In this document: positions 37,865 to 57,307 of the stretch, in pieces
How the letters are laid out: the number at the start of each line of letters is the position of its first letter
Position numbering within the stretch: the first letter of the stretch is position 1
Assembly: GCA_964631415.1 (NCBI GenBank)
Contig: CAZVZC010000002.1
Span: 79,362 to 143,361, forward strand
DNA from: an uncultured archaeon
GTDB taxonomy: Archaea > Asgardarchaeota > Thorarchaeia > Thorarchaeales > Thorarchaeaceae
Length of the DNA: 64,000 nt
Reading direction: 5' to 3'
Program-made: the position numbers and the translations under genes
The notes under the pieces: model-generated
What the model was told of the DNA's origin: nothing
The model's input: only the letters and a program-made list of their open reading frames with translations
Database searches by the model: none

Positions 37865-38536
37865 ATGACCATGCGACCTACTGAGGAAGAGCTCGTCACA
37901 CAGCTCCGCAGAGCATCTCGTCTTCTTGAACGACTGATTCAGTCGGTCCCCCGTATGAGCAGTGAACTGAGCCGCATGGAACAGGACTATGTCTTGAGAG
38001 AGGCTCCACCCAAAGTCGTCTACAAGCGTCGTAATCCGAGAGCCATCGTGTGCATCACTTCCGCTCTCATCCATAACGACCCGCTCGCGGCATCGTTGTC
38101 ACTCATCACCTACGGTGCTTCTTGGCCATCCCTCCTACGGGCTGGCGATCCCACCGAGTCGCCAGATACCTGCGAAACCATTGTGGACACCGTATTGCCC
38201 GAGGTCGCGAAACTGAGCGGCGATATCCTCGTGATGAACCTGAAGTGGGGGCGCATGCCAGACGATTTGGAGAAGGCCAAAGCCGCAATAGTCGGAACCA
38301 GGTTTATACTGGCAAGTAAAGAGAAGCTCGAGTCAATAAGGAAGTCGATCAGTGGCGCTGGCATGGAAGTCTTCTATGACGACGGGTTGTATGGTGGAGG
38401 ACTCCTTGCCTACGACTTGGTGAGAGCCCTCAACGAGAAAGCCGATGCTACTGTGGTTGAAGTCACACTCTCTAGGACTGCTGCTGAGAGTGCCAACATG
38501 ATTCAGTCTCTGCTTCGGGCAGTCACATCAATCTAG
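37865..38536 (+). CDS. Hypothetical alpha/beta protein, possibly a degenerate N-formylglutamate amidohydrolase / gamma-glutamyl hydrolase fold
   Basis: IVGT, GLYGGG, VVEVTLSR echo FGase motifs; metal-binding His residues not evident; 4 nt from the next gene. Confidence 0.4.
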   Translation: MTMRPTEEELVTQLRRASRLLERLIQSVPRMSSELSRMEQDYVLREAPPKVVYKRRNPRAIVCITSALIHNDPLAASLSLITYGASWPSLLRAGDPTESPDTCETIVDTVLPEVAKLSGDILVMNLKWGRMPDDLEKAKAAIVGTRFILASKEKLESIRKSISGAGMEVFYDDGLYGGGLLAYDLVRALNEKADATVVEVTLSRTAAESANMIQSLLRAVTSI

Positions 38537-38540
38537 GTGC

Positions 38541-41500
38541 ATGACCATGCCAGCGGAGCTTTCTGACAAGAAGGAAACGAAGCTGCCGTTTCCTCACGGT
38601 ATCGAGGTCGAGCTCCAGGTCATCAGAAAAGACGGCTCATGGATGAGAGGAGATGAGATCCTCAACGTCTTTGACAAAATGGTTTCTGGAGCCAAGGGGC
38701 TTCTGGACAAGAGAATACGAGCCGCCCAAGTGGACTCAGTGAGAAGGAAGTACAAACAGTCTTCCCAAACCGAAGAGGGCGAGAGAGGATCGAGAGTTGT
38801 GGCAAGCTACGAAGACCCTCAGGGAAGCATGAAGGAATACACACTCATCGGCCACGACCCGAACGTCACCAGCCTGACATGGATTCTCGAGGTGGCGACG
38901 CCCCCATGTACCACTCTGGAAGAACTAGCGTGGTGGGTACAGACTCTGGTTGCAATAACTCACGAGTCAATCCCAAAAGAGTCACGCGCAATCGTGGTTT
39001 CCACTGGCCTCAACCCGACGCAGGAGTATCTGAAGAACCTCTCATTTGGTGAACACCACCATATCCTGAGCAGTAGTGTGGATGACAAGGTCAGAATAGC
39101 AGTATACAACATGATACGCAACTTCGTCCCCCATCTCATCGCAATCTCGGTGAACTCACCCTTCGAGAGCAAGAAGCCGACAGACATTGTGAGCATTGAC
39201 GGCGATGGCCTAACACGGGCCCCCAAATGCAAACGATCAATACGACTGCTCAAGAACACAACGCAAATGGGTCCCGTCAACGAGTTCGAATTCATTCCCT
39301 ATATCAACAGTACGGACAAGGAGTCCTTTGCAAGGCATGTAAACAGAAGCTATGCACGCATGGTGGACGTCTATCCCTTCACTAACTACGGGACGATTGA
39401 AGTTCGCGTTTTCGACACTCAACTGTCCGTCCCTCGAAGAGTGAGTCTCGCGCTCATACTCCAAGCCCTCGCCCTGAGAGCGAAGAGGATGGTCGAGGCG
39501 GGACAGGAAATACCCGATGTCGGAGCTCGTTCACTTGCGGCAAACCGTGAGTCGGCAGTCGCAGCTGGACTCTGGGCGCCATTCAAACCCGGGGTCAGCG
39601 AGAAGAACGAGGAGTACATGGCAAGCTACAACGGCGCAGTGAAGGAGGACGGTACGTACGACAAGTCCCACCGTAGCAGATTCATCGGCGATGCAGTCGT
39701 TTCGATGTTTCACATGATCAGACAAGAGATGGAAGAACTCGGACTACTCGACAATCCGTTCATGCAGCCGTTATTTGTGTCCATCTTTGGCAGTGACTTC
39801 GTGACAGCCAAGACAACGGAGGCGGACTTCCAGCTTGAGGTTTATGCTAAGTCAGACATGAACATGATGGTTCTGTTGAACCGGCTCGCGGACATAACAC
39901 GGGAGTGCTGCACCAACTGGCTCTACGACCCGCTAGAGGGCACTCCTCATCTGCCAACATGGCTCTGCTGGTGGAAAGGACTTGAACCTGAGATAACTAC
40001 GGATTCCGAAAGGACGTTCGGAGGTCAAGAGGCAGAGTTCTCAATCTCACTCAAGAACTCAAGTGACAGGGACATCTCCGATCTGACGATAACATACACG
40101 GTTGAGGACTCGGACAGACATGTCGTGGACCAAAATGTTATTCCCATAGCCGAGCTTGAAGCGGGCGAAGTCCATGTGGCCAGAGTTTCGTTCAAGACGA
40201 GGAGCACGGCCTCCGCCTACAACGTCATAGCTGTTGTCGAGGCCGCGGGGAAGAGAATCAACAAGACCGCAACAATCAACATATTCTGGTTGAGAGCAAC
40301 CGTGCGACCCTCCGCCACAACGCAGTATGCGGATGGTCGGAGCCACATCAGCTTCTCGGGTGAGATTGAAACCAACTACCCCCACGTCACTAAGTTAACA
40401 GCAAAGATAGCAGTGGTTGCTCAGGCCAGAGGGAGTCTGTTGGGAGAGGTGACGCGCTCGATTGTTGTGGAGATAGGTGAGGTGTTCATCTTTGATGAGT
40501 CGGGCATCCCGCCAATCATCGTACCACCAGATCCGTCGCTGAGTGTTGAGAGATGCTTCCTCCGCATGACTCTGTCAGACCAGAGTGGCAATGAAATCAC
40601 GACGGCCACGTCGAGACCGTTCTACATAGGGTTCATCCAACGGGGACCACGAGTCTTGCTCCGAACTGATGCCAAAACCGTTCATACACCCGGTGATGTG
40701 TTGCACGGAGAAACGGAGCTGAAAGGGAGAGGAGCAGGTCTCCCCGAAGGTACGCGGCTAACGATATCGTTCGTTACAGAATCAGGTGTTTCTCACTCCA
40801 TCACGGACGTAAGTGCGTCAAGACTGCTTTCCGAGTCAATCAGGTTCGAGTGGCGAATACCCGCAATCGAATCAGATGAGATCTCTGACAGAACAGGTGT
40901 GGTCGTCGCCTCGCTTAGAAGTGGGAGCGGCGAAATCTCACATGCAGAGTCAGCAAGGCTGCGGATTGCGGATCTGGGCGTCAGAATCAGCATCCTTTCT
41001 CTTAGGGCACCTGAGATGTCACACGTTGGAGGTCCCATATCCGGATGGCTGAGGATAAGGAGGAGCTCTGACTTGGGAGAGCCGGCCACCCTTGTAATGA
41101 AGTTCGTGTTTCCGGACGGCGAGGAGCACAAGGCCTTCACCCAAGCCATCAAACAGAACCGGAACCTCTCAGTTGCCTATGGTCCTATTCTGATCCCGAT
41201 GCCGCAGGCATCAAATGCAGACAAGGTGACACTTGTGGCCGAGGTCCTCTATGCCGGTGCCTTGATGGACCGGCAAGCTGCCGACATCATGCTGGCAGGC
41301 GGGCCGGTTGATGAGAGACTGAGCCTGAGCTTCAGTGGAGTGTCAAAGTTCGTGATCCCTGACGAGCTTGTACACGCGGCGGTCCACCTTACGAACACTT
41401 CTTCGGAGCGGGTGAACTGTCATCTTTCATTGGTGCTCGAGTCGATAGCAGAAACAGAGAATCTGCTTGACCAACAGGTCGAACTTGGTCCCGAGCAGAC

Positions 41501-41984
41501 AAGGGCATTCGGCGTCCCTGTGAGAATACCCTTGACTGCCGAGATGAGTACGGCAGAATTGAAAGCAGTTGCATCCTGTGAAGAGGGTACATATGAAGCG
41601 AAACATGTGTTCAAGGTGAAGGCCATTGACAAACCGCTTTTCTTTATCGACTTCTCAGCTAGGAATGAGAGAGGTGAGGACATTCATGGGCTCGTCCCGA
41701 GGGAATCACCAGTCGACATCGGTGTGCGCTTGCGCTGTCCGAGAGAGGACGTTGAGGGGCTTACTCTTGCTGTTCGAGTGTTGTCGAAAAGAGACGTTGT
41801 TAAGGAGTTCATGATCCCAGTCACAGGCAGCGAGAGCGCTGACTTCAAGCGCACGCTCAGCTGGATCACCCCAACGGTAGAGGTTGTAACCGGCTACTAT
41901 ATCGATGCACTTCTCCTTCTAGGCGGCACTCCTCTTCCCAGCCGTTCGATCGACGTTGTCCGAAAACAGATCACTGTCTACTGA
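38541..41984 (+). CDS. GCS2/glutamate-cysteine ligase-family carboxylate-amine ligase fused to multiple Ig-like domains
   Basis: HGIEVELQ, LEVATPPC, STGLNP, FGEHHH, IAISVNSPF, GTIEVRVFDTQ; then ~660 aa of repeated beta-sandwich units. Confidence 0.85.
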   Translation: MTMPAELSDKKETKLPFPHGIEVELQVIRKDGSWMRGDEILNVFDKMVSGAKGLLDKRIRAAQVDSVRRKYKQSSQTEEGERGSRVVASYEDPQGSMKEYTLIGHDPNVTSLTWILEVATPPCTTLEELAWWVQTLVAITHESIPKESRAIVVSTGLNPTQEYLKNLSFGEHHHILSSSVDDKVRIAVYNMIRNFVPHLIAISVNSPFESKKPTDIVSIDGDGLTRAPKCKRSIRLLKNTTQMGPVNEFEFIPYINSTDKESFARHVNRSYARMVDVYPFTNYGTIEVRVFDTQLSVPRRVSLALILQALALRAKRMVEAGQEIPDVGARSLAANRESAVAAGLWAPFKPGVSEKNEEYMASYNGAVKEDGTYDKSHRSRFIGDAVVSMFHMIRQEMEELGLLDNPFMQPLFVSIFGSDFVTAKTTEADFQLEVYAKSDMNMMVLLNRLADITRECCTNWLYDPLEGTPHLPTWLCWWKGLEPEITTDSERTFGGQEAEFSISLKNSSDRDISDLTITYTVEDSDRHVVDQNVIPIAELEAGEVHVARVSFKTRSTASAYNVIAVVEAAGKRINKTATINIFWLRATVRPSATTQYADGRSHISFSGEIETNYPHVTKLTAKIAVVAQARGSLLGEVTRSIVVEIGEVFIFDESGIPPIIVPPDPSLSVERCFLRMTLSDQSGNEITTATSRPFYIGFIQRGPRVLLRTDAKTVHTPGDVLHGETELKGRGAGLPEGTRLTISFVTESGVSHSITDVSASRLLSESIRFEWRIPAIESDEISDRTGVVVASLRSGSGEISHAESARLRIADLGVRISILSLRAPEMSHVGGPISGWLRIRRSSDLGEPATLVMKFVFPDGEEHKAFTQAIKQNRNLSVAYGPILIPMPQASNADKVTLVAEVLYAGALMDRQAADIMLAGGPVDERLSLSFSGVSKFVIPDELVHAAVHLTNTSSERVNCHLSLVLESIAETENLLDQQVELGPEQTRAFGVPVRIPLTAEMSTAELKAVASCEEGTYEAKHVFKVKAIDKPLFFIDFSARNERGEDIHGLVPRESPVDIGVRLRCPREDVEGLTLAVRVLSKRDVVKEFMIPVTGSESADFKRTLSWITPTVEVVTGYYIDALLLLGGTPLPSRSIDVVRKQITVY

Positions 41985-44129: not shown

Positions 44130-44271
44130 GCCTTAGGCACAGATGGGGATGAAATGCAACTTCGAAACGAAGCTTCATATGCATTTGATTCGAACTGAGC
44201 TTGGAACTGGGGTTTCAGGCCGGTTCAGAAGCTGAACCACACCCCGTGTGTGGAGAAAGGAGAAGTTCAGA

Positions 44272-45105
44272 TTGCAGCTGGAGATGTTATTTACATTCAC
44301 CATTATTGCATTAGCATTCTTTGTGCTGATGTTTGTTGTTTCAGGGATCAAGGTTCTCAAGGAATGGGAACGGGTCGCGGTGCTGAGACTGGGCAAGTTC
44401 AAGCACATTAAGGGGCCCGGTGTCATTTTCATCGTCCCAATCCTCGACCGGATTGCCATGAAGGTTTCTCTGAGGCTACAGACATATGCCTTCAAGACAG
44501 AGAGATCGCTGACAAAGGATAACGTCCCCGTTGTTGTTGACGCTGTCATGTACTCAAGAGTCGTTGATGTAGAGAAGGCGATTCTCAGCGTGGAAAGATA
44601 CACTATCACGGTGGAACTCGCCGCACAGACGACTCTGCGGGAAACAGTTGGTAAGGTAACACTGGATGAGGTGCTCTCGGAGAGAGACAAAATCGCCGCC
44701 CACCTGCAGGAACTCATCGATGAGAAGACTGAGCAATGGGGCATTAAGGTGACGGCAGTTGAGATACGGGATGTGGTCATTCCAACCCAGCTTCAGGACG
44801 CAATGAGCAGAGAGGCACAGGCAGAAAGGGAGAGAAGGGCAAGAGTAACACTGGCTCAGGCAGAGCTTGAAGCCTCGGAGGCTATGCTTAAGGCAGCAAA
44901 GACCTACGAGGAGTCGAGTGTGGCCTTCGCTTTGCGTATCTGGAACGTCATTCAGCAGATCAGCACGAACGCTAGTCTGATTCTGATGGTACCCACAAGC
45001 ATTCCTGAGGTTGGCTTGAGTGCTGCTACTGCAGCGGCCTTCAGTGTTGGCACTGGTGGCTTCAGGCTACCGCAGAAGAAGAAAGCCGTGGAGGAGCAGA
45101 GCTAG
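44272..45105 (+). CDS. SPFH/band-7 (stomatin-like) protein
   Basis: EWERVAVLRLG, GPG, LTKDNV..VDAV, AQTTLR, WGIKVTAVEIRDV, AQAERERRA. Confidence 0.93.
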   Translation: MQLEMLFTFTIIALAFFVLMFVVSGIKVLKEWERVAVLRLGKFKHIKGPGVIFIVPILDRIAMKVSLRLQTYAFKTERSLTKDNVPVVVDAVMYSRVVDVEKAILSVERYTITVELAAQTTLRETVGKVTLDEVLSERDKIAAHLQELIDEKTEQWGIKVTAVEIRDVVIPTQLQDAMSREAQAERERRARVTLAQAELEASEAMLKAAKTYEESSVAFALRIWNVIQQISTNASLILMVPTSIPEVGLSAATAAAFSVGTGGFRLPQKKKAVEEQS

Positions 45106-45139
45106 GTTCGGACACCTATGAAGAGGGGGCTCTAAGAAA

Positions 45140-45838
45140 ATGGACGCGTGGATCAAGATCGTTGTCGTCTTGATGTTGATCTCGGCTATGAGCATGGTCC
45201 TTGGGTATCTGATATTCGATCCGTTCGTTGGTCTGATACTCCTGGGAGTCATCCTCACGCTCATGATCATGACACTCGACCCGGCTACTGGTAAAGCGAT
45301 GTCTCAGGTGATAATCCCGATAGTTATCATTCTGTTCGTCTTTCAGGTTTTCCTCTATCCCGGGGATATCGCATGGTGGATGCCGTTCGTTGTTGGAGCG
45401 GTGCTCTACATGCTCTTCATACTCTTCACTGGTGGCGGTGGAAGCCTCGAAGGAGGATTGATTGATGCAGGGGTTTCAATCAAGCTGTTCCCACTGTACG
45501 GGCTTGCAGTTTTCCTATCGGCCCTAGCGGACCCGACCAGGAAGACCACGGTCTACATCATGGTTGGGACTGTTAGCTGCTTGATGATTCTCTACATGGC
45601 GTTCCTGCGCAACTATGACAAGTGGCCATTGCACTCGTATGAGAAGCAATCCGGAGTCATCGCCCTGAGTGACATCAACCCGAGAGGCAAGGTCAAGGCA
45701 GGTGCAGAGATCTGGTGGGCAAAGACGACAGGACCACCCATCAGGGAAGGCGAAAGAGTCATTGTGCAAGGGGTGACAGGACTCACGATGATCGTTACTA
45801 AGGAAGGGCTTGATGCCGTGCCTGGGAGCGAGCAGTAG
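45140..45838 (+). CDS. NfeD-like membrane protein (C-terminal OB fold)
   Basis: Six TM then INPRGKVK.GAEIWWA...IREGERV.V..V.GLT.IV; adjacent to SPFH. Confidence 0.85.
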   Translation: MDAWIKIVVVLMLISAMSMVLGYLIFDPFVGLILLGVILTLMIMTLDPATGKAMSQVIIPIVIILFVFQVFLYPGDIAWWMPFVVGAVLYMLFILFTGGGGSLEGGLIDAGVSIKLFPLYGLAVFLSALADPTRKTTVYIMVGTVSCLMILYMAFLRNYDKWPLHSYEKQSGVIALSDINPRGKVKAGAEIWWAKTTGPPIREGERVIVQGVTGLTMIVTKEGLDAVPGSEQ

Positions 45839-46688
45839 TCCGTCCGGGTCGGCCTAGTGCCGACTCACCCCCATTCTTCTTTTTCATCACTACCATGATG
45901 AGCAACAGCATCACGATTAGGCCAAGGGCAAACCCAGGTAACGTTGTGATTCCCCACTCTATCTGAAACAGCTCGGGGGCCGTCACGGGTTCACTTGGGT
46001 ATAATGGAAAGAGAATGTAAGCCATCATGTTCCACGAGAAATGGAACCCTACCGGTGCCCAAAGGCGATGTCCCGAGAAGTGGTAGCCCAGCCCTAACAC
46101 TACGCCACCCACAAACAGATTCAGGCTGAAGAGGGTCACCAAGTGATACGGCACTGATCCTAGCGGAGACCACCAACCGAAGTGAACAATGGAAAACACA
46201 ATCGAGCTGACGATTAATCCTCCGGGAAGACCCCATAAGCGGGTCATCCTTGACACCATGTAGCCACGATAGCTCAGCTCTTCAAACAGAGCCACTGGCG
46301 CAGTGATAATGGCTTCCGATAGCACAAGGTCAGCAGTGATCTCTGATAGTGGACGGAGCTGACCTCCTAGATTGGCAGCTAGCAACACGACGAGCCCCGC
46401 AGCCAGTAGTCCAGCGAACGCACCGACTGCCGTGAGCGGGACTGCGTTTGAGTCCATGGTAAGACCTAACTCAGTGATTGAGTAGCGCCCTTCCCATCTT
46501 AGGAACACCTTCAGCACGAAGTACATCAAGCCAAAGGTCAGGAAGAAAAGCAGCGTCGCAGCCAGCTCTTGGAGCTGCACGCTCCAGCTCAGTGCATTTG
46601 TCACGAGGGGGGAAAGCTCAACAATCAGCAGCATCGTTAGGCAGAACAAGACGACTCTAGCTACCTGAGTTGCTCGATCATCGCTCAT
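45798..46688 (-). CDS. CPBP/Abi (CAAX protease II) intramembrane metalloprotease
   Basis: EELSYRGY, FSIVH, HFSWN. Confidence 0.9.
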   Translation of the reverse strand: MSDDRATQVARVVLFCLTMLLIVELSPLVTNALSWSVQLQELAATLLFFLTFGLMYFVLKVFLRWEGRYSITELGLTMDSNAVPLTAVGAFAGLLAAGLVVLLAANLGGQLRPLSEITADLVLSEAIITAPVALFEELSYRGYMVSRMTRLWGLPGGLIVSSIVFSIVHFGWWSPLGSVPYHLVTLFSLNLFVGGVVLGLGYHFSGHRLWAPVGFHFSWNMMAYILFPLYPSEPVTAPELFQIEWGITTLPGFALGLIVMLLLIMVVMKKKNGGESALGRPGRTTARSQARHQALP

Positions 46689-46988: not shown

Positions 46989-48224
46989 TTGTCAGAGACA
47001 AGGCGGCTGCTGTTAGAGTTCGAAACTGACGAAGTGGGAAAGCTCGCCAAGAAGGACGCGAGGATTCGACAGGAACTCGTTCAGGCCTTCTCCGACTCAT
47101 CTGAGATCGTAAGGGAAAGAGCTCTGATTGCTGCCGTTGAGTTGGGTGATCCTCGTGTAGTCACAGATGCAGTCAAAGCTCTGGGCGACGAAGAAGAGGA
47201 CGTCAGGATAGCTGCCGCTCAACTTGTGGCTTGGTTTGGCCAACCCCGGACGGTCCCGGACCTGCTCAATGGTCTGAAGGACTCGAATACTTGGGTCAGG
47301 TCTCACTGTGCATCGGGTCTTTCGAAGATACTGCACGGTCCCATTTGGGCGCGAGTCCCGGCTAAGGACGTTGATCTGCTCCTGTCTGGTCTTCCGGGCA
47401 TGAGTGACCAGCAGATCGAGCAATACATGATTGGGCTCAAGGTCGAGTCAGAAATGGTTGACCGCTTCATCCAGTGGAAGGAAGCCAATTTCAATGTAGA
47501 GATCGACATGACCAAGATGGTTGAAGAGCTTGAGGCCAAGCCGATAGTCTTAGGAGAAGAGAGCAAGCCAGCAGAGTACAGACCGCCTGAAGCGGTGCCT
47601 GCACCCAGAGGGTCAGGCCTGTCCCCTGGGGTCGAGGATATTCTGTCCGAGCTTCCCGAGGATATCAGGATGACTCTTCCCCCGGAAGACCTGAAGCGCT
47701 TGAATGCCACCACTGCGAGAGAACTTGTCGACTCCCTGAAATCGTCCTTTCCTGCCGCAGCAGTTGAAGCCGCCAGGAAGAAGCCGGTGAAAGTGAGACG
47801 CGTCAAGAAAGTCCGCAAGGTCAGGAAGGGACAGACGAGAGAGGAGCTGATTGCCGGTCTCCCGGACGAGGTGAAGGACTCCGTCACGCCAGAGATACTA
47901 GATAGTTTGAGTACTGACGAACTGGAGGCTCTCGTCGGTGCCTCCGCCGAGGAGCATGAAGCAGAACCCGAGGCAGGAGAAGAGGCGCCTCCAAAGGCGA
48001 CCACAACAAAGCCGGCGTCGGGTCGGGCTGAGGCACCAGAAGCGAAGACTGGACGGTCTGATCCACGTTGGGAGGAATACTCCAGTCAGTATGGTCAAGC
48101 GAAGGCCGATCTGCTTGTGATGGTTCCACCCGATATGATTCAGGGTCTTCCAGCTGAACAGATACGTGAGATGGACTTGGAAACGCTGAAAGGTCTGATA
48201 GACGCACTGAAACCACGGGAGTAG
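46989..48224 (+). CDS. HEAT-repeat protein with three C-terminal LP(E/D)D-type repeats
   Basis: DSSEIVRERA, DEEEDVRIAAA, DSNTWVRSHCA; TTG start after AAGGAGTGA. Confidence 0.8.
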   Translation: MSETRRLLLEFETDEVGKLAKKDARIRQELVQAFSDSSEIVRERALIAAVELGDPRVVTDAVKALGDEEEDVRIAAAQLVAWFGQPRTVPDLLNGLKDSNTWVRSHCASGLSKILHGPIWARVPAKDVDLLLSGLPGMSDQQIEQYMIGLKVESEMVDRFIQWKEANFNVEIDMTKMVEELEAKPIVLGEESKPAEYRPPEAVPAPRGSGLSPGVEDILSELPEDIRMTLPPEDLKRLNATTARELVDSLKSSFPAAAVEAARKKPVKVRRVKKVRKVRKGQTREELIAGLPDEVKDSVTPEILDSLSTDELEALVGASAEEHEAEPEAGEEAPPKATTTKPASGRAEAPEAKTGRSDPRWEEYSSQYGQAKADLLVMVPPDMIQGLPAEQIREMDLETLKGLIDALKPRE

Positions 48225-48227
48225 CTC

Positions 48228-49505
48228 TTACTGCGCTCCCCTTATCACCACGGCAAACTCAGTCGCAAGTCGACCATACCATTCAAGCAGATCTCGCATG
48301 TTGTCAACATGACGGTACGTGCCGTTGCCGTATTGTGCCATGGCAAGCATCAGTTCCTCATCGATTTCACTGCGCTCTCCGAGACCAATACAGTACATCA
48401 CAAGCCTTCGTCTATCCGAGAACTTCTCCTTCAAGACCTTGAGAGGAGGAGGCCCGGACGTCGTCATCCCATCGGTGAGGAGGATCAGCATTGTAGGCTT
48501 CTTGGGGTCTCCAAACGCATCAAGTGTTTCGCTCGCCTTGATTAGAGCTGAACCCATGTCAGTCAGAGTGCCTCCCTCTTCCACCTTGTCGATGACATGT
48601 GTGCTTATTATCTGAAGACCCAAGGCCTTGTCCTTGCCTGTACATTCCACATAGGGTCTTACATCACCGGACTCCGGGTCCATGAATGTCATCTCGCTCA
48701 CTTCCTTCTCGAAAGTGATCACGGCGACCTTCTCCCCGTATCCGCGACCAACCTTCTCTGCTAGGTACAGCAGCACAGCCATGGCAGCTGCTTCACCCCG
48801 GCTCACATTGGACCCCTCTTCAAACCTGTCGAGAAAGGCCTGAACATCCGGGTTGTCACCCGCAAGGTCCTTGAGCCCCTCTCGTGCATGGGCCACATCC
48901 CTGACTGGCACGTCATTAGTCTTCATCGACCCACTTGTGTCGATGCATAGGATTGCATTGAAGGGAGTGGATATCCCCACCGTCTTAAACTGGTAACCAG
49001 TCTTGTCCCTCAGTGCCTCAAAGGCAAGCTTCGCAAAGCTCTTGCCAGTAAGCGATGGGCGCGTATTCATTATCTCAACTTTCACTTCCAGCTCGGGCCA
49101 GTTGAAGGACATCCCCGGATACACTAGGCGGCCGCCAATCATCTTCTCCAACAGGTGGACCTTTTCTGCTGCTCTCGGGACTAGGTCTTCTGTGTTTGCT
49201 CCCTCGGCTAGCGGCTTGAGACCAAACTCCACATACTCAAGTGCAATCATCGGTTGATCATAGAGTGTTACCTCGACCATGTCGCCCTCCATGAGCAGGG
49301 AGGCCTCTAGTACAAGGCTGTCAACTACAATTCTGTCCTGCGGGACATCTGCACTCTTGCGGACTTCGGCTGCCCCCCAGAAACTGCTCTGAGGATCCTC
49401 AAATAGCACAATGGAACCCATTTCTGCCTTTAGAGTGTCGGCGGTCCTAGGGTTCAGGTTTGCATACCCTTTGAGATCTCCTCCATCTACGATCTCCAGT
49501 TTCAT
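48228..49505 (-). CDS. CDC48/NSF N-domain-like (DPBB + domain 2) fused to vWA domain
   Basis: GYANLNP..ADTL...RIVVD....LMEGDMVEV; IDTSGSM, TDMGSAL, LLTDG (intact MIDAS). Confidence 0.8.
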   Translation of the reverse strand: MKLEIVDGGDLKGYANLNPRTADTLKAEMGSIVLFEDPQSSFWGAAEVRKSADVPQDRIVVDSLVLEASLLMEGDMVEVTLYDQPMIALEYVEFGLKPLAEGANTEDLVPRAAEKVHLLEKMIGGRLVYPGMSFNWPELEVKVEIMNTRPSLTGKSFAKLAFEALRDKTGYQFKTVGISTPFNAILCIDTSGSMKTNDVPVRDVAHAREGLKDLAGDNPDVQAFLDRFEEGSNVSRGEAAAMAVLLYLAEKVGRGYGEKVAVITFEKEVSEMTFMDPESGDVRPYVECTGKDKALGLQIISTHVIDKVEEGGTLTDMGSALIKASETLDAFGDPKKPTMLILLTDGMTTSGPPPLKVLKEKFSDRRRLVMYCIGLGERSEIDEELMLAMAQYGNGTYRHVDNMRDLLEWYGRLATEFAVVIRGAQ

Positions 49506-49582
49506 CTTCTTAGTAATGGTGTATTCCTCCGAGAGAGCAGTATGATTCCGTCTGACCGAGTTGATATAAACGATTTCACGCG

Positions 49583-51097
49583 CTATGGCACTTCGAGCAG
49601 TGTAAGAAGCGCTGCCGGTATCCCGTCCGTTGATTCAATCTGCACGCCATGTTCGGCCAAAGTACTGAGCAGAATGGGGTCGACCCTCTGAGATGCGAAC
49701 TCAGTGGTATCTAGAGTGTGTTCGGCCCTTGAACTCATGACTGCGCAAGTCACAATCTTGCCAGATTGCTGCCGCACCCAGATGTGAACTTCACGTGCCC
49801 CTTTGTTCGCGACAAGCGTAATGACGTAGGAATTGTCGTAAACGCCACTGAAACCGGCGGTTGAGTACGGTCGCACATCGGGCCAAGTTCCCTTGGGTGG
49901 TATCATGAAGTCAATTGATGCAACGTCCCATTGCCTATCTCGGACAAGAGTCAGTACAAGCGACTCGAGAGTATCAACACCTCGACGATGCTCGTCGCTG
50001 AATACAACTTGCCGGGGAGATTCTCCGCTCGGACCACGTGTTGTGTATGGTTTCTGCACAAGCGAGAGAGCATTGCCGCCTAGAATGCGCTGGATGTCAG
50101 CGAGTGTCCCAGAGAATGACTTCGAGAGCAGGTACATTATCAGTTCTGCGGCTTGCATAGATAGGAAGCTATAGTCAGTGCCAAAGAGTAGCTTCTCAGA
50201 CCATGAACCCCTAGTCGTTCCCACTCGCTCTTGGGCTGTCTTGAACAACACTGGGATGTCTTGGCCGTGCAGGCCCGACGTTTCCGCATAGATCAATGGG
50301 TCCCTTAGAATCTCGTGGAGAAGGGGATCGCCAGGACTCATAGCGCAGTGGCCGAGGATGATGCGCATGCCACGCAGAGCTTCAGTGCACGAGTTGTCGG
50401 AACGTATGTCATCAACCAGTGCTTTGATCTTCCTTGCGGTGCGAATGTTCCTTGTGTCGAATATGACCGGAACACGGAGTTCTCCTGCTCTCTTCACCAC
50501 ACGCTTGGTGATGTCGTCCTGAATGTCATCTAAGAATAGCTGGGCTAGGGGATGGAGCTTGAGGCCGCGCAAACCCAGATTGTTGACCGCCCTATTCAGC
50601 TCATTGACTGCGGTGTCAGGGCTCTTAGTCTTGCCATCCGTAGGGTCGACTCGGGCGAAACCGATGAGTCTCGTTGAGTTGGGTGCATGCGTTGTCCAGC
50701 TCGCTATCTTGTCGTTTGAGAGTCTGAACGATGCAGTCGTGCGGTCGGTTGATTTGGCGTAGTCATCGGAGTAAGGAAAGACTATCGTCCTGTCGACTAG
50801 CCAGCCATTGTTCATCCGCTCCCAGCTGTCCCTCAAGTTGAAACACTTCCAAGGCAGGCTCGGAGGCTCCACTTGTATTGGCTCGAAAAGGAGACCTTCC
50901 TTCTCCAGGCGCTCCTTCGCCATCCGTCGAAGCTCAAACCACAGAAGGGCATAGTATGAGTAAGCACCCGCAGGTGTGTTTCTGTGACTACCTTCGCGAC
51001 CCATGTGATGATGTCCATCGACCAAGTATATGCGGAAGATGTCACCTCTTCTTATTCCATGGGATGGTTGATCTTCCACGGCTCGGACTACTAACAT
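49583..51097 (-). CDS. Amidohydrolase_2-family TIM-barrel metallohydrolase with C-terminal extension
   Basis: VDGHHH, RLIGFARVDP, GLRGLKLHP, IILGH, LLFGTDY, RILGGNA. Confidence 0.85.
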   Translation of the reverse strand: MLVVRAVEDQPSHGIRRGDIFRIYLVDGHHHMGREGSHRNTPAGAYSYYALLWFELRRMAKERLEKEGLLFEPIQVEPPSLPWKCFNLRDSWERMNNGWLVDRTIVFPYSDDYAKSTDRTTASFRLSNDKIASWTTHAPNSTRLIGFARVDPTDGKTKSPDTAVNELNRAVNNLGLRGLKLHPLAQLFLDDIQDDITKRVVKRAGELRVPVIFDTRNIRTARKIKALVDDIRSDNSCTEALRGMRIILGHCAMSPGDPLLHEILRDPLIYAETSGLHGQDIPVLFKTAQERVGTTRGSWSEKLLFGTDYSFLSMQAAELIMYLLSKSFSGTLADIQRILGGNALSLVQKPYTTRGPSGESPRQVVFSDEHRRGVDTLESLVLTLVRDRQWDVASIDFMIPPKGTWPDVRPYSTAGFSGVYDNSYVITLVANKGAREVHIWVRQQSGKIVTCAVMSSRAEHTLDTTEFASQRVDPILLSTLAEHGVQIESTDGIPAALLTLLEVP

Positions 51098-51263
51098 CTG
51101 GACGCTTCTCCGTCGGGTTAAGGCGCACCAACTCGTGATAAACCATCTCATACTAGTCATCGGATGGGTTCAAGTCAGTGACACGACATAATGTCCATTT
51201 GCACTATGGATATATCGATTGGTGTGCTGGTCCACGACAGCCGCCTATGCGGAGTATGACGCA

Positions 51264-53897
51264 ATGATAGTGGTTGAAGATACAGCAAGCAACGAGATCA
51301 GACAGTTCTTCGTTGTGGACGCCCTGCTCCAGATAGGTATGGTCAAGGCTGGAACACAAGTCCGCGTCTTCGACCCAGGGAGGGCACTGTCATACTTCAC
51401 AATGGTTGAGGACCATCTGCATGATCTGGCCACTCAGTACCCGGGAGCCTTCCGATATCTTCCTCGCAGGGCATATGACTATCTCAAGAAGCCGCTAATC
51501 CTGAGTGAGCTCTGTGCCAGCACTCTCGATCCGTCGGCTGCAAGCTGGCTGGTGGACATGTTTTTTGCAAGGCCCCTGATGGCAGTTGCAGGGAGGTCGC
51601 TCCCTGACTCACAGCAGGACAGGAATGCAGAACTCGCTCAAAGATGGTCAGTCGTACTGCCGCACAGTCCGAGACTCTATCATGTTCAAGACATGCGCAA
51701 TGGACGCAGAAGCGGCCCAGGTTGGGGCTGCGCCTTGACAGTTTCCGATTTGCAGGACACCATGAGAGGAACAAACGGCGCCGATATATTGAACTACGTC
51801 AAATCTGGTCTGCCCTTCTTCATAGAACTGAACGCACCTGACGACATCGACCCCCTTCTCAGATGGCTGATCGTCTTGAGAAACACCGGCCTAGCCAGTC
51901 CCAACCTATTCCTCGCCATCAGGGCACACAAGGTTTGGGGGCCCAAGATAACACAGTTACTGGAAATCCCTAACACGAAACTGCTCACCTGTGGAGCAAC
52001 CATATCGTCGCTTACGACGGTAATATCCCATCTTCGTAAGAACGGTCAGAATCCGTTATGGTCCACTAGACTCGTGTTCGCAAGCGCCTACCCCGAAACA
52101 CATGAGGGGGAGAGCATCTCGGAGATCCTCAGTTACCTGTTCAGTAGGAACTTGGCCGCTTCTCCGGAGGACCTGCAGAGAATCCTTGGCACTAATCTAC
52201 TCTCTATTCTTCCTCCAAGACCCCCATTCCTGAGCTATGTCGATAACGATGAAACCGTCATATCTGAGGCACAGTTTGGAAGACTATGTCTGAAGGAATT
52301 GGCCAGGGTTCTCATGCTGCTAGGCACAAAGGGAAAACAGAATATCTTGTCTGTCGACCACATGCTGTCAAACGAAGGCTCCGTCAGCGCCAACAGCGCA
52401 GTAATAACGCTGGGAGAGTCATCACCTAAGGCCGCAACCTGCCTTGCTGTTTTGGTGGAACGTGATGGAACACTGAGGGTGTCAGGCTGGAAGCGCACAT
52501 TCACCGAGAGCCTCAGCTCAAGGAAGAACGACATATACACAACTCTCGTCAGGGCATCAACAAACTCTTCAGGCCCTGTACTGGATTCGCCGGCTCACTT
52601 GAACCAGTTCGATCTTTCTGTGCTCAAGTGCCTGCAAGTCAGAAACCCACAGGAGATTCTATCTGGACTCCACTTTGCGGTTGACACCCGAGAAATCGAA
52701 CCTGGTATCATGTTGATCTCAGCTGACGATATGAAGGCTCTAGGGGTTGCAGACGGTGAGATAGTCCTTGCCCTTGAAGGGGGCAGCGGTCAATGGTGGT
52801 CAGCACGAGGCGAAGAAGGCGATGCACCGAACCGGAGAGTCGTGCTCTCGCGCTCAGACGCACAGCTTGTCGGACTGGATGGCTCGACTCCAGTCGACCT
52901 AGTGAAGCATGAGGGCCACGTCGTAAACCTTCGAGAGATGATCTTCGCTTATGAAGCACTAGACCCTTGGACGAGTGGCGAACTTGCTTCCCATGTACAC
53001 CTTCACGAAGAGTCCATCAAGAAGACAATCGCGGGCCGCCCATTCGGTTTCGGCACAAGGTTGTACCTTGGAGAGCGAGGCCAGAGGTTCACAATGAATC
53101 TCGTCCGCACAGAACCAGGACTGAGTTCGGGAGAACTTGGTGAGGCCCCATCTGAAGGGTTGGTGTTCAGACCGGCTCAAGCATTCGAGGAGATCAATGT
53201 CATACTGTGTTTGTTCATGGATCAGAGCATGGCAGTGAAGGATGTGAATCTGTCAACAGACGCCTCAGTTCGGAGAAGGCTATCCTCACTCAGTGACAAG
53301 ATGCCCGAACTGGTGGACTTCCTGTCTGGCTTGGAAACACAGGTCACAAGGGCGCAACTGGCAGCACTAATCTCCTTGCTGACTATAGGCCAGATGGCTG
53401 TGAACCGCACTGAAGGACACCTGGGGTTTGTTGTGGTTTCCGAAGAAGCTCACAAGTACTGTATTCAGAAGGGCAATTCAATCCAATCCTCCGCCGAATT
53501 CGCCGAAGACCTACCGTCTCACGAGGTCATGACCTCACTTCTATTGTCTATCTTTGATGCAGCGCGAGAGGTTGGTGGGAAACTCAATGCCTCTGCTGCT
53601 TACCGCTCGGTAGCAGAACTGCTTGAAGACTTCGGCCAAGACAGACCAACCCTAGTCATTCTGATCGGAAGTCGATTGGGTGGCCAAGAGGAAGAGAGCG
53701 CGCCCTTCCTTAAGGCCATATCTGATCATGAGAGATATCGACTGGACTTCTTGGGAGTTGGTGAGAGTTTCGATGACAGAGAGGCCCGTAGACTTCTCAG
53801 GTCCGTCAATAGCAGCATAGTACCAATCAGGTCGTTCTCTGCGCAGGTCTTCGATGACTATCTTCTCTCTGCAATACGGAAACTCCTTCCTCGATAG
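51264..53897 (+). CDS. Fusion protein: inactive amidohydrolase + CDC48-N-like + MIDAS-less vWA
   Basis: Collinear similarity to both divergent neighbours with catalytic motifs replaced (VDALLQ, FASAY, LFMDQSM). Confidence 0.8.
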   Translation: MIVVEDTASNEIRQFFVVDALLQIGMVKAGTQVRVFDPGRALSYFTMVEDHLHDLATQYPGAFRYLPRRAYDYLKKPLILSELCASTLDPSAASWLVDMFFARPLMAVAGRSLPDSQQDRNAELAQRWSVVLPHSPRLYHVQDMRNGRRSGPGWGCALTVSDLQDTMRGTNGADILNYVKSGLPFFIELNAPDDIDPLLRWLIVLRNTGLASPNLFLAIRAHKVWGPKITQLLEIPNTKLLTCGATISSLTTVISHLRKNGQNPLWSTRLVFASAYPETHEGESISEILSYLFSRNLAASPEDLQRILGTNLLSILPPRPPFLSYVDNDETVISEAQFGRLCLKELARVLMLLGTKGKQNILSVDHMLSNEGSVSANSAVITLGESSPKAATCLAVLVERDGTLRVSGWKRTFTESLSSRKNDIYTTLVRASTNSSGPVLDSPAHLNQFDLSVLKCLQVRNPQEILSGLHFAVDTREIEPGIMLISADDMKALGVADGEIVLALEGGSGQWWSARGEEGDAPNRRVVLSRSDAQLVGLDGSTPVDLVKHEGHVVNLREMIFAYEALDPWTSGELASHVHLHEESIKKTIAGRPFGFGTRLYLGERGQRFTMNLVRTEPGLSSGELGEAPSEGLVFRPAQAFEEINVILCLFMDQSMAVKDVNLSTDASVRRRLSSLSDKMPELVDFLSGLETQVTRAQLAALISLLTIGQMAVNRTEGHLGFVVVSEEAHKYCIQKGNSIQSSAEFAEDLPSHEVMTSLLLSIFDAAREVGGKLNASAAYRSVAELLEDFGQDRPTLVILIGSRLGGQEEESAPFLKAISDHERYRLDFLGVGESFDDREARRLLRSVNSSIVPIRSFSAQVFDDYLLSAIRKLLPR

Positions 53898-53907
53898 TCG
53901 TGAGTCA

Positions 53908-54201
53908 TCAGACGCGGACTTCGAGTGCCTTGATCCGCGACTCCAATGCATCCGTTTCGAGTTCCAGTCTGTCAATCATACCCCTAACCAGCCCCAAGAC
54001 GCCTGTAATCTGCTCGACACCCGGGCGACCAACTTGGCTCTTCCTGTCCGCACTAGATTGGACGCAGCCCGTTTCCAACGAGTTCAGGAGATACAGCCGT
54101 CCTTCTAGGCTCTTCACTCTGGCAGGCAGACTCCGGAAGTTCATAAGGACATCCTCGGCTCGTTCGACTATTGCCGGTAGTGTTTCCTCATCAGAAGGCA
54201 A
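53908..54201 (-). CDS. Small coiled-coil protein
   Basis: RVKSLEGRL...IDRLE....LESRIKALE; GAGGTGA RBS; 7 nt from the upstream gene. Confidence 0.7.
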   Translation of the reverse strand: MPSDEETLPAIVERAEDVLMNFRSLPARVKSLEGRLYLLNSLETGCVQSSADRKSQVGRPGVEQITGVLGLVRGMIDRLELETDALESRIKALEVRV

Positions 54202-54208
54202 ATGACAC

Positions 54209-55102
54209 TCACCTCTTCTTCCTTTCAGCTAGAGTCTCAATCCGGCGCTCCAGATCCTCCAGTCTAGACGAAAGAGACTCAAGACGGTCAACTACTTCCT
54301 TCAGTCGAACATAGAGATTCTTGGACGGTGCCCCGGAAACAACTGGCAAGTCCTGTACTCCTTCAGTTCCTGCGTCCGAAACCGCTCGTCCCTCTGTTCC
54401 TGCTAGCGAAGACATGCGGCCTTCGAGGGCCTCAATCCTTCTTTGAAGGTCAAGAGTTTCGATCTCGTCCAGCTCCCGGCTCACCTCTGCCAAGCGCTGC
54501 AACAGGTTATCCGTAGTGTCGGCCTTCCGCTCTGTAACACTCTCAAGCACTCCCGTGCTGGAAAGAGAAGAAGGCACAGTGTTCCCGTCTCCAACAGGAG
54601 CGGGTAGATCTTCATCGCCGGGACGGACCTCGATTCGAGGAGGCCGTTTCCATCCTACTCGTGCGGCCTGCGTTGAAGCAGCAGTCGGACGAATTCGCTC
54701 AACTCTGAATCTGATCCCGCGCTCCGGGAGCGCGAACTTCTGGCCGGTCTTCAGGATGCGGCCATCGAGGTATGGTCTGAGGTCCTCTGAGCGCATCGAT
54801 ATCGCGCGACTGACATCGTCCGACGCCCAATAAACCAACTCAATCTCCTTGCAGAATGGCAAATCCTCAGTGACCTGTTCGACCTCCACCTCGGATTCAT
54901 TTTCCAAGTGGAGATCATCAAAGAGTCGTGAGTCGAGCACTATTGTCTGCTCGGGAACGCCCTTGGAAGGCCGAAGGTCACTGAGCAAGCAACGGCCCTC
55001 GTATGAAACCATCACAGTCCTCCCGAGAAGTGACGCTCCTGACGAGGAACTCAGGAATGAAAGCCCCTTCTGGTCGCGTCCGCGCATTGCTCTGATCTTC
55101 AA
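54209..55102 (-). CDS. CDC48-N-like domain + coiled-coil protein
   Basis: VPEQTIVLDSRLFDDLHLENESEVEV; LDGRILKTGQKF...FRVERIRP; C-terminal heptads; TTG start after GAGGAG. Confidence 0.72.
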   Translation of the reverse strand: MKIRAMRGRDQKGLSFLSSSSGASLLGRTVMVSYEGRCLLSDLRPSKGVPEQTIVLDSRLFDDLHLENESEVEVEQVTEDLPFCKEIELVYWASDDVSRAISMRSEDLRPYLDGRILKTGQKFALPERGIRFRVERIRPTAASTQAARVGWKRPPRIEVRPGDEDLPAPVGDGNTVPSSLSSTGVLESVTERKADTTDNLLQRLAEVSRELDEIETLDLQRRIEALEGRMSSLAGTEGRAVSDAGTEGVQDLPVVSGAPSKNLYVRLKEVVDRLESLSSRLEDLERRIETLAERKKR

Positions 55103-55115
55103 CGTCAGCCACTCC

Positions 55116-56243
55116 TCAATAGATTCGCGTTTCGTAGATCCTAGTGGCCATTGACCTGGATCCATAGAGGACCTCGACTCTGAGGCTTGCTTTCTCTTTC
55201 ACATCCGACATTGGTGTCAGCTTCAACTCGATTTGTTGATCGGACTTCGGACCAACGTCCCTTGATTCGTTGGCAACTTCGGAGATGCCCTCGGATGTCA
55301 CCAGTGTCACAACGACCCGGATGCTTGCGGCCGTAGGACTCGGGTTCTTCACTCTGATTCTGTAGTTGAAGGCCTTCCCGGGCAACAGGGCACTCGGCAC
55401 TTCACCTAGTTCCACTGATAGACCCAGCTGGGATGGAACGAGGGGGCGACCTTTTGGCCACGCAGGTATACGCCCAAGCTCCATCAGCCTTGACAGGGAT
55501 GTCTTCAGCTCTCTTAGGCCCAAGGCGAGCACGGTTGCGGCCTCGACCAAGTCAAAGGAGCCATCGTGCGAAGCATAGTAGGCGAGGACACGGCGGTCTT
55601 CCTCGATGAGGTCACTCACTCCTTCGAGTATGCGTAGAATCGCGTCGGGCAGCTCGGGTGCGTTCAACAACGAATAGTACTTCCCGTCCTCCACAGACTC
55701 TGCTATGCTTCTGAAAGATGGCTCGACTAGAGGATTGCACCCACACACAAAAATAAAGACAGTGTTGCCATATGTCTTCTTCAGTTCCTGGACCTCGGTC
55801 TTGGGGTCATGGCCATCCGGACACCCATTGGGAAAGTAATCGTCAGCAAGTGAGTTGTAGGCTCTGCCGTGAGGGGGTGCATCCCCCACAAGAAGGAGGA
55901 CTTTGTAGGAGCTCTTCTCCCATGAGAGTTTCGTCCGAGCATCATATAGACCGTCGGCAACGGCCTCAGGTGTGTCTCCTCCCTCGGAAGGATTCAGGTC
56001 TGATATTTCCTTGTGAACCACTTTGATCTTGTTGGTGAAGTCAAACACACGTGTCACGTAGGTGTGGTCTTGGGGTGGATGGTCACGATAGGACACGATA
56101 CCGAATCTGATCTGGAGTCCCGACGTCCGTGCCACTATCTTGTCGACTATGCTGAAGAGATTGTCCCTCACAGCCACTATGTCGTCTTTCATTGAGCCTG
56201 TTGTGTCTACCACAAAGGCGATGTCCAGGTTGGTTTCGGGCAG
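55116..56243 (-). CDS. vWA domain + wHTH + Ig-like protein, probable CTG start
   Basis: LDIAFVVDTTGSM, SYRDH, GGDTPEAV, VGDAPPHG; FDLVEAATVL...LSRLMELG; C-terminal beta-sandwich. Confidence 0.82.
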   Translation of the reverse strand: MPETNLDIAFVVDTTGSMKDDIVAVRDNLFSIVDKIVARTSGLQIRFGIVSYRDHPPQDHTYVTRVFDFTNKIKVVHKEISDLNPSEGGDTPEAVADGLYDARTKLSWEKSSYKVLLLVGDAPPHGRAYNSLADDYFPNGCPDGHDPKTEVQELKKTYGNTVFIFVCGCNPLVEPSFRSIAESVEDGKYYSLLNAPELPDAILRILEGVSDLIEEDRRVLAYYASHDGSFDLVEAATVLALGLRELKTSLSRLMELGRIPAWPKGRPLVPSQLGLSVELGEVPSALLPGKAFNYRIRVKNPSPTAASIRVVVTLVTSEGISEVANESRDVGPKSDQQIELKLTPMSDVKEKASLRVEVLYGSRSMATRIYETRIY

Positions 56244-56350
56244 CCCAGATCACTCCGTGTGCCACTCGTGTTGTGCCGCAATTAAGGTTTTGCAGGATTC
56301 GGAGCGCAGCACATTTTAAGGTGACCGTACAACCGCATCACAGTGATCTC

Positions 56351-56749
56351 ATGAGCGAGAGTGACTTGGACGTTGAGCTTGAGTTTGAGGGCGGACCGAC
56401 TATCACGGCTGTCATTGACAGAGTGTTGGGTCCACTGATCGTCGAAGAGATCAAGTTCCGACTGCCCATTGTTGCGAAAGCGGCGGTCATGGCCGGGCAG
56501 GTGAAGATGACCCTTGGCATATCCAAGGGGAACCTCAAGGCTACTAGTGAGGTTAAGCGGGGGGACATGGCATACAACCCGCTAGGAGACTCCCTCGATG
56601 TTTACCTCAAAGACATGCACACCTTTGGGCCGGTAAATCTGATCGGCAGGATAACATCGAACAGTGAGGCCCTACAAAGGCTGGGCACGATAAGGCGCGG
56701 GGGAAGGGTCACAATAAGAGCGGCACACGATGCAAAAACGAGGAAATGA
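56351..56749 (+). CDS. Cyclophilin-like fold protein (DUF369/TM1367 type)
   Basis: RLPI, VKRGDMAYNPLGDSLDVY, PVNLIGRI; TTTTAAG box upstream. Confidence 0.8.
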   Translation: MSESDLDVELEFEGGPTITAVIDRVLGPLIVEEIKFRLPIVAKAAVMAGQVKMTLGISKGNLKATSEVKRGDMAYNPLGDSLDVYLKDMHTFGPVNLIGRITSNSEALQRLGTIRRGGRVTIRAAHDAKTRK

Positions 56750-56755
56750 AACTGA

Positions 56756-57307
56756 CTAGACGCGTTCCAAGTTTCGAATCACGGCCTCGGCCTCATCCAC
56801 TCCCATAACCGACGGGTCTACTGTCATTCCTGGATCCTGAGTTTCGATGACTACCTCCATGCCCGAGTCAGTCACCCTCTTGAACCCCATGCTGGATACA
56901 GGTCGAACCCGGAGCTGAGTTGTATCGAACTCTGCCTTACGAACAGCTTCGACAGTCATGGTCTCCTTGCGAATCTTCGACCTCGCGACACGCAGTCGCT
57001 CATTCAGCTCGGCTACTTGGTCTTGGAGCTTGTTCTTCGTCATTATTGCTTCGCTCAGATTCGTCTTGAGCTCCTCATACTGAGCGCGCTCAACCAGACC
57101 GGCCTTGGGGTCGACCCAAGTCAAAGTAGTGCCGTCAGACCTACGCTTTGTAGATACGAAGCCCAAAGCCTTGAGTATCGCAACAATGTCGTAGACTCTC
57201 CGCTTGGGACTCTGGAGATTCTCAGCCAGAACATCGCTTCGTATACCTTGGGTACCGCACTCCTCAAGCAGACGTATCGACTCCTGAGCAAGGTCCACGA
57301 GCTTCAA
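56756..57307 (-). CDS. E2F/DP-like winged-helix transcription factor with coiled coil
   Basis: LAENLQSPKRRVYDIVAILKALGFVS...LTWV, then a leucine heptad and a beta-rich C-terminus. Confidence 0.8.
   Translation of the reverse strand: MKLVDLAQESIRLLEECGTQGIRSDVLAENLQSPKRRVYDIVAILKALGFVSTKRRSDGTTLTWVDPKAGLVERAQYEELKTNLSEAIMTKNKLQDQVAELNERLRVARSKIRKETMTVEAVRKAEFDTTQLRVRPVSSMGFKRVTDSGMEVVIETQDPGMTVDPSVMGVDEAEAVIRNLERV

Follow-up and report, generated by a model that had tools for sequence, protein, structure and literature searches.

The 64 000-nucleotide stretch of DNA analysed here (contig CAZVZC010000002.1 of GenBank assembly GCA_964631415.1, positions 79,362 to 143,361 of the forward strand; hereafter, the window) derives from an uncultured archaeon of the Thorarchaeaceae. 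An original prediction, made for positions 46989-57307, had described a multi-gene cluster of CDC48-N-like modules, vWA domains and amidohydrolases. The open reading frames of that cluster were found on mixed strands, at about the coordinates then given. A carboxylate-amine ligase gene is situated approximately 6 kb upstream, in the same window and beyond the range originally considered. That gene, together with the genes for a CDC48N-vWA protein (A) and an amidohydrolase (B), forms the core of the module examined in this study. At present the module proteins are annotated only as hypothetical or as 'VWA domain' proteins. The core genes, a helper gene (X) and the accessory genes (C to F) are as follows.

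38541-41984, + strand: core GCS2/YbdK-family carboxylate-amine ligase (residues 1-470) with a C-terminal immunoglobulin (Ig)-like array; Pfam GCS2 above cut-off
48228-49505, - strand: core protein A, CDC48-N-like domain (residues 1-177) and vWA domain (178-425); models and fold searches
49583-51097, - strand: core protein B, TIM-barrel amidohydrolase (Amidohydro_2) with a variable C-terminal domain; Pfam above cut-off
37865-38536, + strand: helper X, fast-evolving, directly upstream of the ligase; hhalign and distribution
51264-53897, + strand: accessory C, apparently dead B-like plus A-like fusion; hhalign, no Pfam match
53908-54201, - strand: accessory D, 97-residue coiled-coil protein; weak homologues in some Thorarchaeota loci
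54209-55102, - strand: accessory E, deletion chimera of E1 and E2; BLAST split
55116-56243, - strand: accessory F, vWA, winged helix-like and Ig-like domains; Pfam and alignment

The comparative evidence shows that the ligase, the amidohydrolase and the N-vWA protein are one inherited unit, duplicated and lost together. Protein A, the ligase and protein B were present in 151, 148 and 150, respectively, of 251 Asgard genomes; the families concerned are the same for all three, and the remaining families searched yielded none of them. The module occurs in approximately 60% of the sampled Asgard genomes, including Hodarchaeales, with identities of at most 80% within Thorarchaeota. Outside Thorarchaeota the cluster as originally delimited dissolves, and B and A stay beside the GCS2 ligase (Jordarchaeia, Hodarchaeales, Gerdarchaeales, Helarchaeales and Lokiarchaeia). 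Jordarchaeia contain two copies of the ligase and of the hydrolase, the second of which groups with Gerdarchaeales and Hodarchaeales with 100% support in all three trees; the deeper branches of these trees are poorly resolved and differ from one tree to another.

A search with a profile of the ligase clade retrieved 104 cluster representatives at E<1e-30, among them proteins of Thermoplasmatota and Korarchaeota, and some of the non-Asgard ligases are fused to 2000 or more helical residues. Beyond the Asgard archaea too, Thermoplasmata included, the ligase loci contain an amidohydrolase gene together with one N-vWA gene or two. Between the ligase and the hydrolase, two of the Thermoplasmata loci have a pair of genes each headed by a ubiquitin fold (best E value 2e-4, below the Pfam cut-off). 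The trio is also tied together by natural fusions, of B-like to A-like sequence in accessory protein C and, in one protein from beyond the Asgard archaea, of N-vWA directly to ligase. No conserved transporter or metabolic enzyme was found to travel with the trio in the surveyed loci.

Natural deletions delimit the module. The genes for A, B, F, X and the ligase are missing from three genomes of one Thorarchaeota genus (96-99% complete) and from one other genome. Two separate blocks have been cleanly lost, with intact flanks, in two Thorarchaeota lineages (genus g12 and genome G013). Both gaps are closed on a single contig in three of the deletion genomes, where the gene before X adjoins DUF92, and the HEAT gene adjoins either the cyclophilin-like gene or, in G013, C alone. 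Genome G016 is without the flanks as well and gives no information on the boundary. Since the two blocks have been lost together while the HEAT, cyclophilin-like and E2F-like genes were kept, these three genes represent flanks.

46989-48224, + strand: HEAT-repeat protein, flank outside the module; Pfam HEAT_2 above cut-off
approximately 56351-56749, + strand: cyclophilin-like protein (PF04126), flank outside the module; Pfam Cyclophil_like above cut-off
56756-57307, - strand: E2F/DP-like winged-helix protein, flank; PF02319 (E2F_TDP) above cut-off

The original prediction had counted all three within the system. Their Pfam matches confirm that the genes are real, but they are kept in genomes that lack the module, and the natural deletions rule them out as subunits. 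The E2F-like protein, a winged helix followed by a coiled coil, is retained in Thorarchaeota independently of the module, and its gene is convergent with the cyclophilin-like gene. An SPFH/NfeD pair and a CAAX protease (window 44248-46688) form a conserved Thorarchaeota block that separates the two halves of the module. In a locus of the same genus (L031, genome G003) many genes, housekeeping neighbours included, are split by apparent frameshifts, which are probably an assembly error. No core gene matched a defence model in PADLOC 2.0, where a single weak match to the HEAT protein was observed, and the NCBIfam search returned nothing relevant.

A complex of the ligase with protein A was modelled with a score of 0.76 (three runs), compared with 0.00 for the best of three controls; 58 of 80 solved pairs and 2 of 110 mismatched pairs came up to the former mark. 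At least 64% of the contacts were common to the runs, and the pLDDT (predicted local distance difference test) of the partners was at least 82. On the side of A, the modelled interface comprises residues 40-43, 70-72, 97-104 and 153-154 of the N domain and the GRG motif at 253-255. The model supports the binding of A to the ligase via the CDC48-N-like domain.

The modelled structure of A consists of two domains. The isolated N domain gave a confident model (pLDDT 93.9), for which the best match was CDC48A-N (Z 15.4, root-mean-square deviation (rmsd) 2.6, 157 residues aligned), with further matches to Sec18-N, PEX1-N and NSF-N (Z 13.8), the N-terminal domain (NTD) of DEPDC5 (Z 12.0, rmsd 5.1) and Ufd1 (Z 10.9). 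Pfam CDC48_N was matched by 7 of 16 family members. The vWA domain resembles numerous vWA structures (Z values of about 21), its metal-ion-dependent adhesion site (MIDAS) is intact (D189, S191, S193, T315 and D345, conserved at 97-100% in 37 sequences), and a family-specific KxGRGxGE motif is present. Protein A stops after the vWA domain, with no AAA module. The N module of A has paralogues in C and E (hhalign 99.5% and 98.8%), and the three are mutually far closer than they are to the single CDC48 of the genome; here the N domains are followed by a vWA domain or a coiled coil, and not by AAA modules. The CDC48-N folds originally proposed are thus real, as are the three vWA domains, those of A and F with an intact MIDAS and that of C with its MIDAS lost. 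Both the expected fold and the co-location of the genes were found.

When the whole of A was submitted to Foldseek, the top seven matches were DEPDC5/Sea1 chains (E values 1.5e-13 to 9e-12), because in both a vWA fold comes after an N domain. This order of domains has been described for DEPDC5/Iml1 (PMC8534245). The IML1 profile (PF12257) gave no match to the A family. The architecture of A matches that of the front half of DEPDC5/Iml1, and homology between them is unproven. The C-terminus of A was also considered as a Pup-like tag. It reads RGAQ here (window 48228-48245); 64 of 120 homologues, mostly from Thorarchaeota, end in Glu (RG-A/S-E), but termini in Gly or Asp and extended termini are frequent, and in other lineages the ending is different. 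The terminus recalls the end of Pup, is not invariant and was retained as a lead only.

Judged from its sequence, the ligase has the glutamine synthetase (GS) fold of GCS2/YbdK enzymes, with the ExE, third Glu, HxH and ExR motifs and the full set of GS-fold catalytic residues, and its residues E22, E24, D106, E117, H172, H174, R235, E287, R289 and D292 are invariant in 12 homologues. Helper X was found in 119 of the 251 Asgard genomes, in module-bearing families only, and is the fourth member in most lineages. It matches the gene upstream of the Lokiarchaeia ligase (hhalign 89%, E value 2e-6) and is fused to an Ig-like domain in Lokiarchaeia and Helarchaeales. A degenerate N-formylglutamate-amidohydrolase (FGase) fold is a weak lead for X (score 0.86), for which no Pfam or PDB match was obtained. 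X- and Z-like domains among the Thermoplasmata neighbours were not supported by hhalign.

Protein B has the HxH motif, strand-5/6 ligands and strand-8 Asp of Amidohydro_2. Its metal ligands (H29, H31, K180, H182, D214, H250 and D308) are invariant in 15 Asgard homologues, and Asp replaces the usual His of strand 6. Protein C is a collinear fusion whose two halves resemble B (hhalign 99.95%) and A (100%). It lacks the Amidohydro_2 features, its metal ligands and MIDAS residues have both been replaced, and it is, to judge from its sequence, catalytically dead. The pair of an active and a dead amidohydrolase was correctly foreseen. C is limited to Thorarchaeota, Jordarchaeia and their kin. In genome G013 (L196:11987-14545), C is intact though A, B, F, X and the ligase are lost, which suggests a separate role or a recent loss.

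Of the remaining accessory proteins, D is poorly conserved. Residues 1-163 of E correspond to the N domain of E1 and the remainder to the coiled-coil tail of E2, as judged from a BLAST split across two neighbouring genes of relatives. Most long Thorarchaeota loci have, in place of E, these two genes: E1 (an N domain and a vWA domain without MIDAS) and E2 (a tandem globular repeat and a coiled coil). The chimeric form is found in the closest genome too. E, taken at first for an independent N-module and coiled-coil gene, is thus a lineage-specific deletion chimera, and the two coiled coils can be regarded as putative paralogues only. E1 and E2 are dispensable, because both are missing from nine Thorarchaeota loci. 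A possible resemblance of E2 to a tandem roadblock/longin protein, which would be a parallel to GATOR1, comes from a single low-confidence Atlas match (template modelling score 0.50 on a model of pLDDT 0.44), with no profile support. The start codon of F, which is found in Thorarchaeota and two sister families only, is probably the CTG at 56243.

Several further genes were observed in the vicinity of the module. In two sister families, the gene immediately ahead of X and the ligase encodes a coiled-coil protein of approximately 800 residues with a C-terminal EAP30/Vps36 (ESCRT-II) domain (G000:C2:45450-47870; L095:8462-10879; L042:15560-17944); the second Jordarchaeia module is flanked by a shorter relative. 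Genes for roadblock and weakly gelsolin-like proteins adjoin A or B in Lokiarchaeia and Jordarchaeia (L049:7067-8542; L067:7278-8670; L064:6544-7425). In 4 of 4 Hodarchaeales loci, a small GTPase and an unannotated gene of 300 residues precede B, the ligase and A in one run (L084:7471-8997). The N-vWA/ligase fusion gene (L187:10001-12889) is at the edge of a region that looks like a defence island and contains genes for DNA methylases and for TGT/QueC-like and TIR proteins. The genome's only MoxR/ChlI-type AAA gene (window 14951-17622) overlaps its own vWA partner and is unrelated to the module.

It is proposed, at about even chances, that these genes represent a split archaeal system for the reversible modification of proteins by gamma-glutamyl amides, the A/B cluster being the hydrolase/adaptor half and the ligase operon the other half. 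GS-fold ligases use ATP and Mg, and the carboxylate is usually a glutamyl gamma-carboxylate; TIM-barrel amidohydrolases cleave C-N bonds at a metal centre. In GS-fold ligases an amine is joined to the carboxylate once the latter has been phosphorylated; PafA has its origin in this group (PMC2588565). In the module, A is predicted to dock on the ligase via its CDC48-N-like domain and may confer specificity, with its MIDAS holding a client protein by an acidic side chain. A gamma-glutamyl amide would be written onto that client by the ligase, and B would remove the mark or else, like Dop, deamidate the donor to make it ready. The lineage-specific proteins C, E1/E2, D and F may be pseudo-enzyme and scaffold subunits that tune the system. 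Features pointing to proteins are the Ig arrays or 2000-residue helical extensions of the ligases, the two interaction domains of A and the ubiquitin-fold genes of Thermoplasmata. Removal of a modification had been suggested in the original prediction and is compatible with this proposal, but the writing enzyme had been missed and three bystander genes included.

Several results weigh against the proposal. No tag, target or substrate was found, and an invariant Pup-like C-terminal Glu/Gln occurs in none of the module components. The closest solved sequence relatives of the ligase are YbdK structures (1r8g/1tt4, E value 2e-14 in a profile search of the PDB), and YbdK is a ligase of the small-molecule type; no PafA or Dop was listed at E<=1 in that search, a sequence-only comparison. 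The interface residues on the ligase side are less conserved than average (0.34 versus 0.49), the complex is a prediction built from the alignments of this analysis, and the 251 genomes are related, so that the counts overstate independence. It is because no tag or target was found that the proposal is rated no higher.

A pathway for a small molecule or lipid headgroup, in which the ligase would gamma-glutamylate a metabolite amine, B would hydrolyse the intermediate and A would scaffold or regulate, is possible though unlikely. Models for it exist in the gamma-glutamyl protection routes of PuuA/PuuD and EgtA/EgtC, and the relationship to YbdK, the FGase lead for X and the lack of a small tag gene are in its favour, as is the fact that GS-fold ligases act mostly on small molecules (PMC2588565). 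However, no conserved transporter or metabolic enzyme accompanies the trio, and large interaction arrays and ubiquitin-like neighbours would be unexpected in metabolism. A reversible protein mark fits better than a metabolite pathway because of those arrays, an obligatory partner with two protein-binding domains, the opposing hydrolase and the lack of a metabolic gene with the trio. It is improbable that the module is a sensing or signalling scaffold, with the A family ancestral to the NTD-SABA part of DEPDC5/Iml1 and the enzymes handling an amino-acid-derived signal relayed to small-GTPase/roadblock circuits. The Foldseek ranking of whole A, the end-to-end match of the DEPDC5 NTD to its N domain (Z 12.0), the presence of the module in Hodarchaeales and the roadblock, gelsolin-like and small-GTPase neighbours of some lineages would agree with such a role. 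Yet the rmsd over the whole chain is approximately 12 Å, better scores for the single domains come from p97-N (Z 15.4) and from unrelated vWA domains (Z 21), the IML1 profile does not match, the GTPase/roadblock neighbours vary by lineage, and the module exists in Thermoplasmata too.

Improbable as well is the model of the original prediction, in which a quality-control complex would link the hydrolase to an AAA machine from another locus (CDC48, PAN or MoxR). The N domain of A has a true CDC48-N fold, vWA domains serve as adaptors of AAA proteins elsewhere, and CDC48 is universal, so that its co-occurrence is no argument against coupling. But the N domain of CDC48 is its cofactor-binding part, and not a tag for binding an ATPase, and the model places that of A on the ligase. 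Among 140 loci with a core gene (2.2 Mb, partly redundant), no AAA neighbour was conserved: CDC48 was nearby in one Jordarchaeia genome, two genes from the ligase, and PAN once, and MoxR has its own vWA partner. A passing contact with CDC48 is conceivable, but none of the observations calls for one. The claim that the system has no ATPase of its own holds for positions 46989-57307, where no AAA gene was found, but an ATP-using GCS2 ligase lies 6 kb upstream. As partner of the system, this ligase is favoured over an AAA machine: it is co-located with the other core genes, has been lost and duplicated together with them, occurs in a natural fusion and is predicted to bind A. A chance neighbourhood of unrelated genes, held together by Thorarchaeota synteny, describes the HEAT, cyclophilin-like and E2F-like genes; for the core it is hardly credible, being refuted by the two-block co-loss, the co-duplication and the fusions.

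Taken together, the data bear out a conserved, undescribed multi-gene system, with a redrawn boundary and a different partner. No description of the trio was found in the literature, in which a table entry may have been missed. New here are the paired natural deletions, the recognition of E as a chimera, the fusion of A to the ligase and the scoring of their modelled complex. Should the module modify proteins, the lineage closest to eukaryotes would have a new system of post-translational modification. The further idea of a third archaeal protein-tagging system, independent of ubiquitin and Pup, with a CDC48N-vWA adaptor that steers the ligase, a TIM-barrel eraser and an adaptor ancestral to the front half of DEPDC5/Iml1 (GATOR1), is distinctly unlikely. 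The A family offers a testable hypothesis for where the DEPDC5 N-terminal module came from, in regard to which a published survey of Asgard genomes reported NPRL2-like proteins only (10.1101/2020.10.19.343400). Three soluble proteins would suffice to reconstitute the trio.

Among known systems, DEPDC5/Iml1 (Sea1) of GATOR1/SEACIT resembles A in that a CDC48/NSF-N-like domain directly precedes a vWA fold, free of ATPase, whereas A is without the SHEN, DEP and C-terminal domains, keeps its MIDAS and is 10-18% identical with no profile match. The N domains of CDC48/p97, NSF, PEX1/6 and Ufd1 have the same fold as that of A (a double-psi beta-barrel and a four-stranded barrel), but the N-domain proteins of the module carry no AAA module. 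MoxR-vWA chaperone pairs have in common with it a vWA domain whose intact MIDAS is the likely client-binding site; no MoxR gene accompanies the module. Pupylation (PafA, Dop, Pup and Mpa/ARC; Actinobacteria) also combines a GS-fold ligase with a GhExE signature and an amide-cleaving enzyme, and would share the proposed logic of writer and eraser. The module differs in having no Pup-like tag, no small gene conserved by the ligase across lineages and no proteasome/AAA linkage; its hydrolase is a TIM barrel and not a ligase paralogue, its CDC48N-vWA partner is obligatory and its ligase is YbdK-like in sequence. The YbdK/GCS2 ligases (PF04107; 1r8g, 1tt4) share the fold family and the catalytic residues of the ligase domain. 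YbdK, however, is a stand-alone enzyme of 370 residues, whereas the module ligases form a distinct clade with Ig arrays or giant helical fusions and with fixed partners.

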